Positions 37,291 to 54,244 of a stretch of DNA of 64,000 bases are shown piece after piece; position 1 is the stretch's first letter; each line of letters starts with the position of its first letter. Below the pieces are notes generated by a model. It ran no database searches. It worked only from the letters and a program-made list of their open reading frames with translations, and was not told where the DNA came from. The translations under genes were made by a program, and so were the position numbers. Origin of the DNA: an uncultured bacterium (GTDB lineage: Bacteria > Armatimonadota > UBA5829); assembly GCA_963823885.1 (NCBI GenBank), contig CAWGNL010000101.1, forward strand, positions 14,444 to 78,443, written 5' to 3'.

Positions 37291-37444
37291 CTATACTTTA
37301 CTCCCGGTAAAACAGGTGTTAGGTGCTGGGTGTTGGAAGGGACCGCCCCCCTTCCTAAAGCGGCGCAGCCGCAACCAAAAGGGCTATCGCCGGAAAATCA
37401 ATACAGCCTTTGCGCAATTCGGAAGGTCGGTGGTTTCCTCTTAG

Positions 37445-37761
37445 GAGCTCGAGCGCCCTCCCAGAAACAATTTGTTGTCGCTAAGGCGGATTCGACGGCG
37501 CACCGCCTTTGGGTTTTCCGCTTTATGGTTGTTAAGGGATGGCCGATGAGCTATACTTGCTTTGCCTGGGCGGAGGGTAGGGCAACGCTGGGGAGCTCTC
37601 CCGAGCCGACTCAGGTGTTGTTCAAGGGATGGGGGTGGAAATCTCCGCCCCCTCCAAATCATCCCTTAACAACCGAAAAGCGAAAAACCCGACCGCCTGC
37701 CTTGGTCAACTGCCACCGTAAGGTGGCCACTTTTCCCCAGCGAAGTCTGGAGAAAAGCGTA
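37445..37761 (+). repeat. 317-bp highly structured non-coding element, copy 1 (inserted into another repeat)
   Basis: Boundaries come from comparison with the uninterrupted host repeat at 54044-54210. Internal long helix: GGGTTTTCCGCTTTATGGTTGTTAAGGGATG ... CATCCCTTAACAACCGAAAAGCGAAAAACCC. It also has a GNRA-capped hairpin GCCACC-GTAA-GGTGGC. An inverted copy lies at 42708-43026. Confidence 0.75.
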
Positions 37762-37850
37762 GTATCTTACAACTGAAATCCGGGGTGGCCTTTGAAGTTC
37801 AGTACAGCTTGTATAGGATTTCAGTTGTAAGATACTAACACCCAATGCTG

Positions 37851-39098
37851 CTATTCGCTATAGTTTCTGCCCACGATCACCGTCACGTCGGCTGCGCCTG
37901 GCGCGTGCGGGACGTCTTCCCTGATATCGTCGCACTTGAGAAGCTTGGCTATCCGCTGCACGGGCTCCGTCTTGCCCTTGTGCGTGATGATGCAGCTTTG
38001 GTCATATTTGAAGTTCGGCGCGTTGCTGGTGCGCGTGACCTCGAAGCCGGCCTTCTTGAGCTGGTCCGCGACCTTATTGGCCATCCCGACAACCCCGCTG
38101 CCGTTCAGGACTTCCACCTTGGCGGAGTCCCCTCCGACGCTGCCCTGGAAAAGCAGATAAGTATTGGCCACCTGAGCTATCTGCTCATAGTCGGGAAGCC
38201 AGTAGCTGGCGTCGTTCTTTCTGCCGGAGCCGCCGGGAAGCAAGACCATCGCTATCTGCTCCGGCTTGATATCCTTGAAATAATCCGCCATTCCCGCCCA
38301 GTCGGACATTTGCATGTCGGAGTATAGGTATTTGCAATCGTAGGCCGTTGCGAGCACCTGCATCCGTTCTCGCTTTGTCGGCATGCTCAGCACGCGGTTT
38401 GCCAAGGCCCGCATGAATACTGCTGGCGAATGGTCCGGCCCGCGGGCACTTTCTTGCCACCCACCATCCTGAACCCGCTGTCGCCGATGCCGGATCGTGC
38501 CGGAACCGCACGTAACCTTCGGCCTGAACTCCGTTCAGGAGCTGCTTTTGGGGGCCGGCATGCGATTTATGTACAGGTCCTGATGGCGGTCCGAGTAGCG
38601 CATATCTTCGTCGACCACAATATATACGCCGCCGACCAGGTCCACCATGCCCCTCAGGCCGGAGCACGTCATATCGACATAATAGTCGATGGGCACGCCC
38701 ACCAGGTCCTGCACTACCTGCTCCGCAAGCTTCGGGCCGCCGATGGCGTTTGCCGCGTTGATTTTGTGCGTCCCGTGACCGGGTATCTCTACCCGGGTGT
38801 CGCGGGGGATGGAAATAGCTCGCACCTCCCTGGTCTGCGTGTCTATCCCGAACAACACGAGGCTGTCCGAAAGGCCGTGTCCGCCATGCTTAGCCCCCGC
38901 GGAGTTGTCCTCGCCAACCATCAGGATTCTGACGTATCTTCCCTTGCCTTGGAACGGCGCGGCGAACAACCCGCCCCAGCCGGTGTGCAAGCTGGTCATG
39001 GAAGGCAGCATCACGGCAAGAAAAGTCCCGCCCGCAATGCCTACCGCCGAGCCAAGCAGAATCACCAGAATTACGGCTATCCAGGACGTACCTTTCAT
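37851..39098 (-). CDS. LytR-CpsA-Psr (LCP) family protein; three or more frame changes between ~38420 and ~38560
   Basis: The N-terminal anchor and LCP core are in ORF 38535..39098 (MKGTSWIAVILVILLG...ILMVGEDN...LSDSLVLFGIDTQTREVRAISIPRDT...). The segment QLLNGVQAEGYVRFRHD is in a second frame and GDSGFR...RTIRQQ in a third. The LytR_C-like end is in ORF 37851..38414. Confidence 0.75.
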
Positions 39099-40640
39099 CA
39101 GTTTACCTTTCTGTCCAAGCCGAGCGCCGGAGAATTGCCGAGGTACCGGGAATCTTGTTCCCGATACGTGATTAGTTTCGGGGACAGATTCCCGAAATAC
39201 CCAATTACGGCTATCCAGGACGTACCTTTCATCAGTTTACCTTTCTGTCCAAGCCGAGCGCCGGAGAATTTGCCGGTGTATCGGGAATCTTGTTCCCGAT
39301 ACGTGATTAGTTTCGGGAACAAGATTCCCGAAATACCCAATTACGGCTATCCAGGACATTACCTTTCATCAGTTTACCCTTCTGTCCAAGCCGAGCGCCG
39401 GAGAAATTGCCGGTGTATCGGGAATCTTGTTCCCGATACGTGATTAGTTTCGGGAACAAGATTCCCGAAACACCCAAATTACGGCTATCCAGGACGTACC
39501 TTTCATCAGTTTACCTGCCGGTGTATCGGGAATCTTGTTCCCGATACGTGATTAGTTTCGGGAACAAGATTCCCGAAATACCCAATTACGGCTATCCAGG
39601 ACGTACCTTTCATCAGTTTACCTTTCTGTCCAAGCCGAGCGCCGGAGAATTTGCCGGTGTACCGGGAATCTTGTTCCCGATACGTGATTAGTTTCGGGAA
39701 CAAGATTCCCGAAATACCCAATTACGGCTATCCAGGACTTACCTTTCATCAGTTTACCTTTCTGTCCAAGCCGAGCGCCGGAGAATTTGCCGGTGTAACG
39801 GGAATCTTGTTCCCGATACGTGATTAGTTTCGGGGACAAGATTCCCGAAATACCCAATTACGGCTATCCAGGACGTACCCTTTCATCAGTTTACCTTTCT
39901 GTCCAAGCCGAGCGCCGGAGAATTTGCCGGTGTATCGGGAATCTTGTTCCCGATACGTGATTAGTTTCGGGAACAAGATTCCCGAAATACCCAATTACGG
40001 CTATCCAGGACGTACCTTTCATCAGTTTACCCTTCTGTCCAAGCCGAGCGCCGGAGAATTTGCCGGTGTATCGGGAATCTTGTTCCCGATACGTGATTAG
40101 TTTCGGGAACAAGATTTCCCGAAACACCCGAAAAACTCTTCAACGCATTCCGGTATCAGATACCTTTGCCGGTGTATCGGGAATCTTGTTCCCGATACGT
40201 GATTAGTTTCGGGAACAAGATTCCCGAAATACCCAAAATACCCAATTACGGCTATCCAGGACGTACCTTTCATCAGTTTACCCTTCTGTCCAAGCCGAGC
40301 GCCGGAGAATTTGCCGGTGTATCGGGAATCTTGTTCCCGATACGTGATTAGTTTCGGGAACAAGATTCCCGAAACACCCAAATTACGGCTATCCAGGACG
40401 TACCTTTCATCAGTTTACCTGCCGGTGTATCGGGAATCTTGTTCCCGATACGTGATTAGTTTCGGGAACAAGATTCCCGAAATACCCAATTACGGCTATC
40501 CAGGACGTACCTTTCATCAGTTTACCCTTCTGTCCAAGCCGAGCGCCGGAGAATTTGCCGGTGTATCGGGAATCTTGTTCCCGATACGTGATTAGTTTCG
40601 GGAACAAGATTCCCGAAACACCCAAACACCCAAACACCCA
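39099..40640. repeat. 1.5-kb tandem array: 10 units of [double-hairpin palindromic core + duplicated 5' end/upstream region of the LCP gene]
   Basis: CCTTTCAT (complement of the LCP ATG) recurs at 39230, 39367, 39504, 39611, 39747, 39884, 40020, 40271, 40408 and 40515. Units are ~134-137 bp or 107 bp, plus one 251-bp unit. The core is GCCGGTGTATCGGGAATCTTGTTCCCGATACGTGATTAGTTTCGGGAACAAGATTCCCGAAATACCC. Confidence 0.9.
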
Positions 40641-42625
40641 AAATTTAGAAATTCGTGCTTACCGTTCCGGTACAATCCCTTTTCCCTAATAAACTCTTCA
40701 ACGCATTCCGGTATCAGATACCTTATCGACTTTCCGGACCGCACCCGCTCGCGCAATTCGGTCGACGAAATGTCCACCGCGGGCATCCGAAGCCTGACAA
40801 TTCGCCCGGCAAAGTCTTCGGGCACCGCCGGGAGCGCATCCGAACACGGCCTGCTTGCGGCGACTATGATTGCCATCTCCGCCAAAGCGTGAGGCTCGCG
40901 CCAGGACATAAGGTTCGCGGCCTCGTCCTCGCCCATCAATAGATAGACGCGAGTTCCCTCGCCATAATCCGCAATTATTTGCCTTACAGTATCTATTGTA
41001 TACGACACGCCGCCGCGGTCAAGCTCCAGCGTGGATGCCTCGAAGTGAGCGTTGCCTTCCACGGCCATACGGACCATCTCGTGGCGCAATCGAGCGTCGG
41101 CGATCGGCTGTCCCGACTTGTGGGGCGGGTCCGCCGCCGTCACGAAAATCACCCGTTCCAGGCCCAACTGCTCCCACGCCTGTTCGGCAAGTATCAGATG
41201 GCCATAGTGAATGGGGTCGAACGTGCCCCCCATCAATCCGATGCTTCGTGTGCGCCCGGGTGTTTCGGGATTTGAGGAGCGAGCACAGTCGTTTGGCATG
41301 CGGCGCAAACGTCGTATTCGCTCCGGAAATCCCGAAACAGTCACGCTGGGCTTTCGCACTTCCATTATCCCCTCGAGCTGCCCGCTGCCCGTAACCACGT
41401 ACTTGTAGGTAGTTATCTCTTCCAGCCCCATCGGCCCGCGAGCGTGGAGTTTCTGGGTCCTGATGCCCATCTCGGCTCCCTTACCAAATTCGTACCCATC
41501 GGTGAAGCGAGTCGACACATTCACGAACACCGCGGCGGCATCCACTTCCTTGCTAAAACGGACGGCCGCGCTGTAATCTTCGGTGACAATCGCCTCCGAG
41601 TGGCCGCTGCCGTATTTGGCGATGTGCGCTATCGCCTCCCCCACTCCGGAGACCACCTTGACCGCCAGGATCAGGTCCAGGTATTCGGTTTCCCAGTCTT
41701 CCTCGGTCGCCTCCGTCAGGCCCGGCACGATGGCGCGCGTTTTCTCGCAGCCGCGAATCTCGACACCGGCGTCGGCCAGGCGCTTACATATATTTGGAAG
41801 AAAGTCAGCGGCAATTTGTTCGCTCACCAGCAAAGTTTCCGCGGCATTACACACGCTGGGGTTCTGTACTTTCGCATTGAATGCGATCTCCCCGGCCATT
41901 CTCGGGTCCGCTTTAGTGTCGACGTAGACGTGACAGTTGCCGTCGCCGTGCTCGATTACCGGGATCGTCGAGTTCTCGACCACCGTCCGAATGAGGCCCT
42001 TGCCCCCGCGCGGGATCAGGCAGTCGATGTAGGCTTTCATATTCATGAGCTCGCGCGCCGCAGCGCGGTCGGTGGTCTCGATGATTTGCACCGCTCCTTC
42101 GGGCACGCCCGCGCACGAAGCAGCCTCGCGGATAAGCCGCGCGATCGCGAGGTTCGAGTTTATCGCCTCGGACCCGCCGCGCAATATGACCGCATTGCCG
42201 GCTTTCAGGCACAGCGCGGCGGCATCGGCGGTGACGTTGGGCCGGGACTCATAAATAATGCCGATCACACCGATCGGCACCCTGACCTTGCGGACTTCCA
42301 TCCCGTTGGGCCGGATATAGCCCTCGATGGTCTCGCCAACGGGATCGCGCAGGCCCGCTATCTGCCGCACGCCATCAGCCATCTGGGCGATCTTTTTATC
42401 GGTAAGCTCCAGGCGCTTTAGCATGGCCCCGCTCAGGCCGGCGGCTTGGGCCGCGGCGAGGTCCCTTTTATTAGCTTCAAAAATGGCGGCCTTATTCGCC
42501 TCGAATGCATCCGCCATCGCAAGCAGGGCTTTGTCCTTCACGCTGGTTCCCAGCACGGCCATCTCGCGCGCCGCGGCCTTCGCCTGCTTGCATTTGAGTT
42601 CTACTTCGCTCACTTCCGACTCCAC
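40592..42625 (-). CDS. proA: Single 677-codon ORF: gamma-glutamyl-phosphate reductase (ProA, ~41372-42625) read through a repeat-derived linker into nicotinate-nucleotide adenylyltransferase (NadD, ~40650-41251)
   Basis: ProA: ...IGIIYESRPNVTADAAALCLKAGNAVILRGGSEA...CNAAETLLV...TYKYVVTGSGQLE. NadD: IGLMGGTFDPIHYGHL...ISSTELRERV...IRYLIPECVEEFIREKGLY. The linker VTVSGFPERIRRLRRMPNDCARSSNPETPG is encoded by a palindromic repeat (41258-41345). The last ~20 codons also run into repeat DNA. Confidence 0.8.
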   Translation of the reverse strand: MESEVSEVELKCKQAKAAAREMAVLGTSVKDKALLAMADAFEANKAAIFEANKRDLAAAQAAGLSGAMLKRLELTDKKIAQMADGVRQIAGLRDPVGETIEGYIRPNGMEVRKVRVPIGVIGIIYESRPNVTADAAALCLKAGNAVILRGGSEAINSNLAIARLIREAASCAGVPEGAVQIIETTDRAAARELMNMKAYIDCLIPRGGKGLIRTVVENSTIPVIEHGDGNCHVYVDTKADPRMAGEIAFNAKVQNPSVCNAAETLLVSEQIAADFLPNICKRLADAGVEIRGCEKTRAIVPGLTEATEEDWETEYLDLILAVKVVSGVGEAIAHIAKYGSGHSEAIVTEDYSAAVRFSKEVDAAAVFVNVSTRFTDGYEFGKGAEMGIRTQKLHARGPMGLEEITTYKYVVTGSGQLEGIMEVRKPSVTVSGFPERIRRLRRMPNDCARSSNPETPGRTRSIGLMGGTFDPIHYGHLILAEQAWEQLGLERVIFVTAADPPHKSGQPIADARLRHEMVRMAVEGNAHFEASTLELDRGGVSYTIDTVRQIIADYGEGTRVYLLMGEDEAANLMSWREPHALAEMAIIVAASRPCSDALPAVPEDFAGRIVRLRMPAVDISSTELRERVRSGKSIRYLIPECVEEFIREKGLYRNGKHEFLNFGCLGVWVFRESCSRN

Positions 42626-42707
42626 AACGGCCCGTAGGGGTGGACCGCCGTGTCCGCCCTCAAAGGGCCAGCACCATTATACCGCAATTAGAGGTTAGAC
42701 GTAAGAG

Positions 42708-43026
42708 GTAAGAGACTACGCTTTTCCCCAGACTTCGCTGGGGAAAAGTGGCCACCTTACGGTGGCAGTTGACCAAGGCAGGCGGTCGGGTTTTTCGCTT
42801 TTCGGTTGTTAAGGGATGATTTGGAGGGGGCGGAGATTTCCACCCCCATCCCTTGAACAACACCTGAGTCGGCTCGGGAGAGCTCCCCAGCGTTGCCCTA
42901 CCCTCCGCCCAGGCAAAGCAGGTATAGCTCATCCGCCATCCCTTAACAACCATAAAGCGGAAAACCCAAAAGCGGTGCGCCGTCGAATCCGCCTTAGCGA
43001 CAACAAATTGTTTCTAGGAGGGCGCT
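42708..43026 (-). repeat. 317-bp highly structured non-coding element, copy 2 (inverted relative to copy 1)
   Basis: Near-identical reverse complement of 37453-37770. It lies in the proB-proA intergenic region. Confidence 0.75.
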
Positions 43027-43032
43027 AAGCGC

Positions 43033-44151
43033 CTAAACTCCCAGCACCATGTTATCCCTATGAATCACCTCGTCGTAATCCTTGCGCCCGAGAATCTTGG
43101 GTATTTCGCTCGACCGCTTTCCTCTGATAAGCTGGATTTCCGAGGCGGCATAATTCGTGAGGCCCCTGGCGATCCGGCATGAATCTTCATCGACCACCGA
43201 TACCAGGTCGCCCACGTCGAAGCCGCCCTCGCAGCCGGTGATTCCCGCCGCAAGCAGGCTCGTTCCCCTGCCGATAAGCGACTTCTTCGCGCCCTCGTTC
43301 ACCGTCACGCTGCCTTTCACCTGGCCGCCGAACGCCAGCCACCGCTTCCAGTGGCTCAGCCCGTTGAGGCTCGCAAGAAACAGCGTGCCGGCAGGCTTTC
43401 CCGCCACGACATCCACGATCACGTTGGGCCGCGCCGCGCCCGCTATCACCACGCGCACGCCGGAATTGACGGCGATCTTGGCGGCTTCGATCTTGCTCTT
43501 CATTCCACCGCTGCCGCTCGTGCCCACGCCGCCGGCAAGCGCTTCGATATCCGGGGTAATCGATTCCACCCGCTGGAGCAGCGCGCATGGACCGCCGAGC
43601 CTGGGGTCCGAATCGTACAAGCCGTCCACATCGGAGAGGTTCAACAGCACATCGGCGTCGACGCACGCGGCCACAAGCGCGGCCAGGGTGTCATTCTCTC
43701 CAAACTTGATCTCCTCGGTCGCCACGGTGTCGTTTTCGTTGACTATGGGCACCGTGCCGAACCGGAGCAGCGTGCGGAGGGTATTGCGGGCGTTTAGATA
43801 CCTTACGCGGTCGTTTACGTCGTCGCGGGTGAGGAGCACCTGCGCGGGGATAACTCCGTGCCGCGAAAACGCTTCCGCGTAAAGGCTCATCAGCGAACTC
43901 TGCCCGATGGCCGCGCTGGCCTGCAGATCGGGGATGTTTCGGGGACGCTTCGCTAGACCCAGCCGTTCCATTCCGGCCCTGATAGCGCCCGACGAAACCA
44001 GGATCACGCCCTTTCCCCGGTTCTTGACCTCGGCGAGCTGCCCCACCAGCCCCGCCACCTTCGCGCGGTCGAGTGCACCGGAGTCGCCCACGAGGCTGCT
44101 CGTGCCCACCTTGACGACTATTCGATTGACTGATCTGCTAGTATCCTTCAT
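43033..44151 (-). CDS. proB: Glutamate 5-kinase ProB (with PUA domain)
   Basis: MKDTSRSVNRIVVKVGTSSLV...SSGAI..G...VPIVNENDTVATEEIKFGENDTLAALVA... I place the start at ATG complement 44149-44151. The longer ORF-track N-terminus (to 44313) is translated palindromic repeat DNA. Confidence 0.88.
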   Translation of the reverse strand: MKDTSRSVNRIVVKVGTSSLVGDSGALDRAKVAGLVGQLAEVKNRGKGVILVSSGAIRAGMERLGLAKRPRNIPDLQASAAIGQSSLMSLYAEAFSRHGVIPAQVLLTRDDVNDRVRYLNARNTLRTLLRFGTVPIVNENDTVATEEIKFGENDTLAALVAACVDADVLLNLSDVDGLYDSDPRLGGPCALLQRVESITPDIEALAGGVGTSGSGGMKSKIEAAKIAVNSGVRVVIAGAARPNVIVDVVAGKPAGTLFLASLNGLSHWKRWLAFGGQVKGSVTVNEGAKKSLIGRGTSLLAAGITGCEGGFDVGDLVSVVDEDSCRIARGLTNYAASEIQLIRGKRSSEIPKILGRKDYDEVIHRDNMVLGV

Positions 44152-44441
44152 CAGAAAACTCGAACTCCATGCCGTGAATGCGAACGACGTCGCCGTGCTT
44201 ACCGGGTGTTTCGGGAATCTTGTTCCCGAAACTAAGTGCGTATCGGGAACAAGATTCCCGATACACCGGCAACTAAGTGCGTATCGGGAACAAGATTCCC
44301 GATACACCGGCAACGACGTCGCCGTGCTTAAGTGCGTATCGGGAACAAGATTCCCGATACACCGGCTTGACTGATCTGCTAGTATCCTTCATCAGAAAAC
44401 TCGAACTCCATGCCGTGAATGCGAACGACGTCGCCGTGCTT
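44126..44441. repeat. 75-bp perfect direct duplication of the obg-stop/proB-start junction, flanking a 166-bp insert of palindromic hairpins
   Basis: 44126-44200 and 44367-44441 are identical (TTGACTGATCTGCTAGTATCCTTCATCAGAAAACTCGAACTCCATGCCGTGAATGCGAACGACGTCGCCGTGCTT). The insert holds one GTTTCGGGAATCTTGTTCCCGAAAC hairpin and three TATCGGGAACAAGATTCCCGATAC hairpins. Confidence 0.9.
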
Positions 44442-54043: not shown

Positions 54044-54210
54044 CCTAAAGCGGCGTAGCCGCAACCAAGAAGGCCATCGCCGGAAAATCAATACGGCCTT
54101 TCCGTAATTCGGAAGGTCGGTGGTTTCTTCTTACGTATCTTACAACTGAAATCCGAGGTCACATATCAAAGTTCAGTACAGCTTGTATAGGATTTCAGTT
54201 GTAAGATACT
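54044..54210. repeat. 167-bp repeat, uninterrupted copy (empty site for the 317-bp element)
   Basis: CCTAAAGCGGCGTAGCCGCAACCAAGAAGGCC...GGAAGGTCGGTGGTTTCTTCTTAC|GTATCTTACAACTGAAATCC...GGATTTCAGTTGTAAGATACT. The copy at 37354-37836 is the same sequence split by 317 bp at the marked point. Confidence 0.8.
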
Positions 54211-54244
54211 ATTAACCCTACCAACCTTACCGCCCCCCTCCTGC

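Follow-up and report, generated by a model that had tools for sequence, protein, structure and literature searches.

The window analysed here, a 64-kb stretch of contig C101 from the metagenome-assembled genome (MAG; 5.05 Mb, 129 contigs, 69% complete) of an uncultured Armatimonadota bacterium, carries two inverted copies of a short, strongly folding sequence. This raises the question whether such a sequence is the gene of a structured RNA or a mobile element. The initial annotation of this DNA had preferred a structured RNA of 317 nt to a MITE (miniature inverted-repeat transposable element). On the basis of its ends, copies and relatives, we conclude that the sequence is very probably a non-autonomous, MITE-like derivative of a ~1.9-kb insertion sequence (IS) from a large unannotated family, whose cargo would be a promoter and a candidate gene for a small structured RNA. 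As a whole it does look like an IS derivative and not an RNA gene, and the cargo looks like a structured RNA of an undescribed class borne by mobile elements.

Limits and copy number of the element

A repeat search returned one inverted pair (37452–37770 and 42708–43026; 319 nt, 98% complementary), which agrees with the two inverted copies described at first. It overshoots the true limits because the right flanks of the copies (TATCTTAC and TCTCTTAC) are alike. The true limits were set by an alignment of 104 near-full-length genomic copies with their flanks, and are listed here with the parts of the element (window positions, strand in brackets; a slash in a sequence marks a junction).

37445–37762 (+): copy 1 of the putatively non-autonomous element, 318 nt, with its own terminal TAG at 37760–37762
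42716–43032 (−): copy 2 of the element, with the RNA-like core at 42823–42917 (−), in sense orientation relative to the proB–proA operon
37442–37444 (+): target triplet TAG, immediately left of copy 1, from the 104-copy alignment
43033–43035 (−): TAG beside copy 2, serving as the stop codon of proB (open reading frame (ORF) 43033–44313 (−) with AA_kinase and PUA domains)
37445–37483 (+): left-end module in common with the autonomous IS (TAG/GCGCTTAGCGCC...ACAATTTGTTGTCGCTA), matching the left end of the IS in L092/L093 at 93% identity over 41 nt
37511–37541 (+): 5' arm of a 30-bp inverted repeat, containing the -35 box and pairing with 37660–37690
37529–37557 (+): sigma-70-like promoter, with TTGTTA (-35, 37529–37534), a 17-nt spacer and TATACT
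37561–37655 (+): conserved structured RNA-like core (P1, CCUGGGCGG with CCGACUCAGG; AGGGUAGGGCAACGC...), scoring 75.5 bits (E = 5.6e-17) with covariance model R2 and showing covariation
37660–37690 (+): 3' arm of the inverted repeat, which in the predicted RNA pairs with an internal copy at 37617–37631; conserved tail GAAAAGCGAAAAACCC at 37675–37690
37709–37762 (+): right-end module in common with the autonomous IS, with a GNRA hairpin (37712–37727), a terminal hairpin (37730–37757) and then GCGTAG; matching the right end of the IS in L092 at 96% identity over 54 nt

The element is far from being a two-copy feature, as it had first appeared. A blastn search of the genome gave 123 matches that span 200 nt or more; 104 are close to full length, and the best 40 are 98–100% identical. 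Altogether about 120–146 copies are present in the 5-Mb MAG, which is very rich in repeats (454,868 megablast self-hits). Promoter and 5' core are retained in 116 copies. Given more than 100 copies in the genome, the inverted pair flanking 37.8–42.7 kb is not special. The helices listed by the initial annotation are present in the sequence, and the 318 nt contain only chance ORFs, in support of its view of the one ORF that it named as a by-product of the palindromes.

The ends are those of an insertion sequence

A DNA scan of metagenome contigs with a pattern for the right-end hairpin retrieved two contigs, L092 and L093, each with a complete 1913-bp element (an earlier pattern specific to G031, a relative from the same order, found no match in the metagenome contigs, and the shorter end pattern succeeded). 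This IS reads TAG/GCGCTTAGCGCCCGGTTAGAAACAATTTGTTGTCGCTA...GCCACCGTAAGGTGGCCACTTTTCCCCGGCGAAGTCCGGGGAAAAGCGTAG/, with a 548-aa ORF on the opposite strand between its ends, and lies in an IS5-like transposase gene (...GTTGTA-TAG/element/TGCCTTTGC; site TAG/TGCCTT). Nucleotides 1–41 and 267–320 of the window element correspond to the two ends of this IS, at the identities given above, and the 225-nt middle has no similarity to it. Such a middle appears to be replaceable. The genomic variants keep the first ~40 and the last ~55 nt and differ in between, and the same left end (LE) stands on other internal variants both in this genome and in G031. The spacing between LE and right end (RE) falls into classes of ~250 nt (83 copies), ~220 nt (19) and ~100 nt (5), and no long form was found in this genome among LE–RE pairs up to 6 kb apart.

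In G031, both end modules and the middle were found apart from one another. Contig breaks interrupt its copy of the IS: the C-terminus of the opposite-strand ORF comes after the left end, and after the right end come a promoter and a leader and then the N-terminus MQTNDEFTQYYSELLEGAYDCVDR. Contig L093 starts with an RE-TAG-LE junction, possibly a tandem copy, possibly a circle; head-to-tail junctions with one common TAG were seen there and at C58_91061.

The only trace of the gene region of this IS family in the Armatimonadota genome is C25:13601–13672, a remnant of the promoter and leader of a related member. Promoter and leader upstream of the transposase gene (GCTATATTCCCATTACGTGGGCGGATG..GGAAGCTTTCYCTGGGGAGGGTTTGGTTTCCTC) were identified in L092/L093, in G031 (L037/L051) and at C25:13560–13700. 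The leader is ~90% conserved between subfamilies with differing ends and may be a regulatory 5' untranslated region. An autonomous partner within the genome itself was also sought among single-end fragments, LE–RE pairs of up to 6 kb and clusters of multi-copy ORFs; none of the IS and transposase genes that these searches brought up has such ends.

The 548-aa protein represents a very large family. A phmmer search with the 55-aa C-terminus against 1.84 billion representatives gave 285 matches, including a full-length protein of 549 aa (P0101) that matched both termini (tblastn with the same 55 aa across the phylum found G031 only). More than 3000 protein clusters from many phyla belong to the family, all annotated as 'hypothetical' and most of them on contigs of ~2 kb, and at least 560 loci were found in GTDB species representatives, again from many phyla. 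Pfam, NCBIfam and PDB sequence searches with the ~548-aa protein gave no match, and in its AlphaFold (AF2) model (predicted local distance difference test score, pLDDT, 72) only a C-terminal winged helix was clear. The motifs YDCxDRI, HYxFHIxD, NGHEW and EYSRN of the protein are conserved. Multi-copy members in a gammaproteobacterial and a deltaproteobacterial MAG had the same CTA/.../CTA junctions and NNNCTT flanks, an LE starting with GCSCTTAG and an RE ending with a hairpin and GCG, and homologous end hairpins were also found in more distant members from other phyla. At three other loci (L094, L095 and L089, metagenome or MAG contigs), 549-aa members stand directly behind a diverged paralogue (C-terminus ...TEKLTALAA, then stop); such tandem insertions match the tendency in this genome to insert beside the ends of related elements. 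Literature searches turned up neither an account of this IS family nor one of the RNA motif considered below.

Junctions and target site

Throughout the genome, the element is placed as flank-TAG/element...TAG/NNNCTT-flank. The left flanks are unique DNA ending in (T)TAG, with TAG at 128 of 146 left junctions and a preceding T in 64 of the 109 unique flanks. On the right, 65 of 119 copies abut the hairpin of a 167-bp MITE, and among the 54 unique flanks without this hairpin, position +4 was C in 40, +5 was T in 42 and +6 was T in 35. Together with the left TAG, these counts define the site as TAG/NNNCTT. The target NNNCTT mimics the start of the element itself (TAG/GCG CTT AG), and because the sequence on the far side mimics the element start, copies pile up beside the ends of related elements and after TAG stops such as that of proB. 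Stop-codon targeting as a rule was considered and rejected: the unique left TAGs ended ORFs of at least 100 codons in 22 of 109 cases (~20%) vs 11.7% for random TAGs, which is only a mild enrichment.

Terminal inverted repeats (TIRs) are lacking in the family, and hairpins occur at both ends. No TIRs matching a DDE-type IS were found; the ends of the element share only CGCTT in inverted orientation, and no DDE IS in the genome has similar TIRs.

These ends and junctions suggest how the element could move. Of the IS it keeps just 41 nt of the left end and 54 nt of the right end, and it would presumably be mobilised in trans by the ~548-aa protein. Cleavage and joining would take place 3' of TAG, presumably as a site-specific nick-and-join reaction along a single-strand or rolling-circle-like route. 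Promoter and predicted RNA stand where the transposase gene would be.

Nesting within other repeats and neighbouring genes

The surroundings of the two copies in the window contain the following features.

37354–37444 (unstranded): left part of a 167-bp hairpin MITE cut by copy 1; 91% identical to 54044–54133; ~270 genomic copies
37763–37837 (unstranded): hairpin part of the 167-bp MITE (TATCTTACAACTGAAATCC...GGATTTCAGTTGTAAGATAC)
54044–54211 (unstranded): uninterrupted paralogue of the 167-bp MITE
43036–44313 (−): proB (AA_kinase and PUA domains)
40595–42625 (−): proA/nadD (Aldedh and CTP_transf_like domains)

Copy 1 had been described as interrupting a 167-bp repeat, and copy 2 as lying between proB and proA; the repeat halves bear out the former and the domains of the flanking ORFs the latter. 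The insertion itself thus stands, whereas the supposed empty site at 54044 is not an allelic one and represents a paralogous copy of the hairpin MITE. Copy 1 is a member of a subfamily nested inside this MITE, and the composite of 167-bp repeat half, 317-bp element and second repeat half has been duplicated at least 10 times with identical inner junctions. As one insertion was copied together with its surroundings, the 'empty site' in the window is paralogous, not allelic.

The 167-bp MITE likewise lies between TAGs (TAG/TATCTTACAAC...GCCGCTT TAG/), and its right end is similar to that of a third family of elements in G031 (CCTTCTTGGTTCCGGCTCCGCCGGGTTAG), the hairpins differing by compensatory changes. 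The MITE probably belongs to the same IS superfamily, as a further non-autonomous member. In addition, many 317-bp copies are broken by other small elements, including a 136-bp repetitive extragenic palindromic (REP) unit and an IS66-type MITE with GTAAG...CTTAC ends. These nested insertions are often found at ...GGGTTTTCCGC/TT (for example, C70:54059, C59:16414, C68:76850 and C86:8312), and nesting in this genome is several layers deep.

Other mobile elements were examined as possible mobilisers. The TIRs of IS66, IS5-like, IS630-like and IS4-like elements are unrelated to the ends of the element, and an IS21 found in the search for a partner does not have these ends. About 70–100 Y1 genes, resembling those of REP-associated tyrosine transposases (RAYTs), were rejected on the grounds that their flanking hairpins differ. 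They were found on C41, C43, C45, C87, C96 and other contigs (for example, C96:81594–83685), many of them in head-to-tail tandem arrays of ~670-bp units, each flanked by GGTGTTTCGGGAAC..GTTCCCGAAAC hairpins. This type of gene is normally single-copy, and its amplification here is unusual. A single IS91-like gene (Y2_Tnp, PF04986), split into two frames, is located at C25:13843–15058 (−) beside a truncated Y1 element and a remnant of a relative of the IS with the 549-aa protein. It was rejected as a partner, being unrelated to these ends; the neighbouring sequence, similar to the interior of the G031 element, is the remnant of the promoter and leader of the related IS, and G031 has no Y2 gene.

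A promoter and a conserved RNA-like core in the middle

The only promoter-like site in 37400–37850 ends 3 nt before the start of a conserved motif at 37561, and homologues of this motif in other genomes have an extended -10 box (TGnTAnAnT) 5–8 nt upstream of it. Since the -35 box lies inside the 5' arm, the 30-bp helix is a DNA-level inverted repeat and probably not in the transcript; the reading of this helix as the closing helix of an RNA is therefore not supported, the 5' arm being upstream of the likely transcript start. The motif reads CGG-AGGAUAGGGCAACGC-loop-GCGACC(C/U)GAGCGCCG, followed by a variable long hairpin and the tail CCCAAAGCGAUAAACC. The predicted RNA in the window would accordingly consist of a ~95-nt core, a long hairpin and then the conserved AAAGCGAUAAACC tail. 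When the middle of the window element was compared with two copies in G031 and a metagenome copy (L090), the 30-bp arms were found to change with compensation and the centre to be conserved.

Folding of the element as a whole was compared with that of shuffled sequences, giving z = −6.3 and −5.5 for the two strands; as both strands fold far better than shuffles, folding is not strand-specific. For the core, in alignment A4 (30 homologues from other genomes, fitted to the covariance model, which favours the pairing score), 95.7% of the cells were paired and 16 of 20 pairs had double changes. The covariation score was 0.409, vs 0.128 in shuffles (0 of 500 reached the observed value) and at most 0.096 when the pairing was slid. 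G-U pairs are frequent in these homologues and confined to this strand. Thus, the proposal of a structured RNA is upheld for the ~95-nt core, which covaries across genomes, and not for the 317 nt as one RNA.

Two checks proposed in the initial annotation gave no signal. The first was a search for compensatory changes among genomic copies: the 104 copies contained 31 double changes vs 179 broken pairs, and paired positions varied as much as unpaired ones (0.037 vs 0.043). Because the burst was recent, such covariation within the genome is uninformative. One clear swap, from A-U to G-C, was observed in the terminal hairpin, and it fits DNA-hairpin ends as well as RNA. The second was an Rfam covariance-model search, which at the gathering threshold identified only tRNAs in the window, found nothing credible for the element at E ≤ 10 and gave no match for eight loci from other genomes at E ≤ 0.5.

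The local genomic copies are off the consensus of the motif at two near-invariant places. Two more copies of the RNA module stand outside the 317-bp element, at C83:74609 and C83:260045 (strand-relative indices, not plus-strand coordinates); their arms (GTCGAAACGGAAG / CTTCCGTTTCGAC) have another sequence, their -10 boxes are TGGGTACAAT / TGCTATAAT, and they are nearer to the cross-genome consensus than the MITE-borne copies. The tail of the RNA (AUAAACC) was also considered as a mimic of a clustered regularly interspaced short palindromic repeat (CRISPR) and rejected: the sole CRISPR-like array found in the genome, from C114:16618 onward (at least 12 repeats containing TCTTAATCCCCTTGCGGGAATT, spaced at ~75 nt), has an unrelated repeat.

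Distribution of the core in genomes and mobile elements

With a covariance model of the ~95-nt centre (R1), the motif was identified in 20 of 401 Armatimonadota genomes from 18 genera, usually with 1–4 copies each, and an exact-pattern scan found it in three viral contigs. Of 32 genomes from other phyla that were searched with the refined model R2, 5 contained it, one of them in as many as 22 copies (Acidobacteriota, 22; Planctomycetota, 13; also Verrucomicrobiota), as did both viral records tested. The motif usually adjoins transposase or integrase genes: in rve-type IS elements (L181, L184, L189 and L218) it lies past the stop codon and before the end of the element, at L187 it follows an IS110 transposase gene, and at L180, L193 and L200 it has tyrosine recombinase genes on either side. 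No guide-like variable segment was identified in it. The viral IMG/VR contigs L208/L210 and L209 contain the motif with promoter and AAACC tail and have very different G+C contents; one AT-rich carrier contig is unlikely to infect Armatimonadota.

The same motif is carried by IS3-like, IS110 and integrase-bearing elements and by phages in several phyla, and our best guess is that the RNA acts in trans and is of benefit to mobile elements. A broader proposal can be offered tentatively, and we consider it possible rather than probable: the inner module may be a new class of small structured RNA that hitch-hikes on unrelated mobile elements (IS3-like, IS110, integrase elements, phages and this MITE) and gives them some advantage, for example, against host defence or in the control of mobility. 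The MITE burst in this genome would then have multiplied a promoter-driven copy more than 100-fold, and the transposase of the parent IS would have a fold unseen in transposition.

Alternative explanations

The initial annotation held the whole 317 nt to be a single structured non-coding RNA gene, ribozyme-like or protein-binding, in two copies. Its very stable predicted fold, the GNRA loop kept as GUAA or GCAA across genomes and the A-U to G-C swap in the terminal hairpin would all suit such a gene, but ~120 copies with insertion-type junctions, ends so close to those of an IS around a replaceable middle, and a -35 box in the 5' arm of the long helix would not. In addition, G031 has the centre in the opposite orientation to the outer ends, and the reverse strand folds equally well; with no Rfam match either, we regard a 317-nt RNA gene as hardly tenable. 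Nor do we find it credible that the element is a REP-type repeat, a REPIN (a paired REP element) or a palindrome-associated transposable element (PATE) moved by the IS200-like Y1 transposases of the genome. These genes are certainly abundant (68 Pfam-level matches to Y1_Tnp, 184 tblastn segments), and hairpin ends with (G/T)TAG beside hairpins are seen in REPs too; however, all copies of the Y1 gene are flanked by other hairpins (those given above and variants), never by these ends, and the element with identical ends encodes a different protein, of 548 aa.

Two further alternatives concern the inner module only. It might act as folded single-stranded DNA (ssDNA) instead of RNA, for example, as a signal resembling a single-strand origin or assisting transposition. 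A parent IS with hairpin ends and without TIRs, whose protein has a weak Rep-like structural match, would be compatible with such a role; long inverted arms would restore a double-stranded -35 region within the hairpin, and covariation cannot separate RNA from ssDNA. On the other hand, the motif is also present where no ssDNA origin is needed, namely in IS3-like elements, in IS110 elements and between genes for tyrosine recombinases, the motifs of many genomes have no 5' arm and a promoter directly upstream, and G-U(T) wobble pairs are frequent, all of which makes ssDNA an unlikely explanation. It is more doubtful still that the module is a nested TIR-type MITE that has no function of its own and is conserved through recent spread. 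Its 30-bp inverted repeats do bound it, and with such arms it stands alone twice more in the genome (C83) and in G031. Yet the compensated change of the arms around a conserved centre across genomes is the reverse of what a TIR-MITE would show, the 5' arm is missing from the homologues of other phyla and of phages, and double changes affect 16 of the 20 pairs over distant genomes.

Several observations also weigh against our own interpretation of the element as a non-autonomous IS derivative with an RNA gene as cargo. No copy of the 548-aa gene was found by tblastn in this incomplete assembly, and with the transposase gene absent from it, mobilisation in trans is something that we infer here. 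The TAG on both sides, duplicated or borne by the element, is not invariable: one copy has TAA/TAA and four are discordant. With respect to the protein, profile searches for a catalytic class gave no match, and Foldseek against PDB returned nothing at E ≤ 0.001, the weak match to the Rep_trans rolling-circle initiator 4cij_D having a probability of 0.47, E = 0.06 and a template-modelling (TM) score of 0.29. As for the RNA, the genomic copies show no selection signal on the helices, and the covariation of the core could also be attributed to folded single-stranded DNA. Furthermore, in the window copies one P4 pair is broken and the conserved GAGCG is 2 nt short; local copies are therefore possibly impaired, and their RNA module may be weakened.

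Implications

The analysis connects a repeat of an uncultured bacterium with a very large IS family whose protein still carries the annotation 'hypothetical protein'. It provides this family with precise ends and a two-sided target rule, TAG/NNNCTT, from which a transposition assay can be designed directly. The covarying, promoter-linked motif lies outside Rfam and occurs in at least four phyla, on mobile elements and on phages; its expression would make it a new class of mobile-element RNA. More than 100 strongly folding, promoter-bearing insertions beside stop codons or within operons (in the window, that of proB and proA) may influence read-through and the stability of mRNA, and such repeats fragment the assemblies of this MAG and its relatives.

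Comparison with known systems

MITEs and PATEs are gene-less derivatives of insertion sequences, PATEs being derived from IS200/IS605. Like them, the element is short, non-coding, intergenic and high in copy number, with IS ends only and a fixed short target, and it is rich in hairpins without long TIRs, as are PATEs. It departs from them in a parent protein without a Y1/HUH profile match (hence not IS200/IS605), in the two-sided target TAG/NNNCTT and in its promoter-equipped, structured RNA-like cargo. The preference for a structured RNA over a MITE was not sustained, the element being a high-copy, non-autonomous IS derivative. With REP/REPIN–RAYT systems it has in common a genome full of REP-like hairpins and RAYT-like genes and a TAG-type motif beside hairpins, but the hairpins flanking those genes differ, and the element is far longer and composite. 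The absence of TIRs, a hairpin just inside one end, a fixed short sequence at the insertion and no obvious target duplication recall IS91, ISCR and Helitron elements, whereas the partner protein has no Y2/HUH domain and the target is not GTTC/CTTG.

The element also resembles the IS family of the ~549-aa protein, with which it shares the ends of L092, the junction triplets, the LE start GCSCTTAG, the RE hairpin with GCG and the NNNCTT flanks; it differs in that the window element is without a gene and that no gene copy was found in its genome. Finally, the motif inside the element differs from other RNAs of mobile elements (the omega RNA of IscB/TnpB, the bridge RNA of IS110, RNA anti-CRISPRs and small RNAs of phages) in having no Rfam match and in not being bound to one enzyme family, since it accompanies rve, IS110 and tyrosine-recombinase genes as well as this MITE. 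It resembles all of these in what is predicted for it: mobile elements and phages would encode a small structured RNA behind a promoter.

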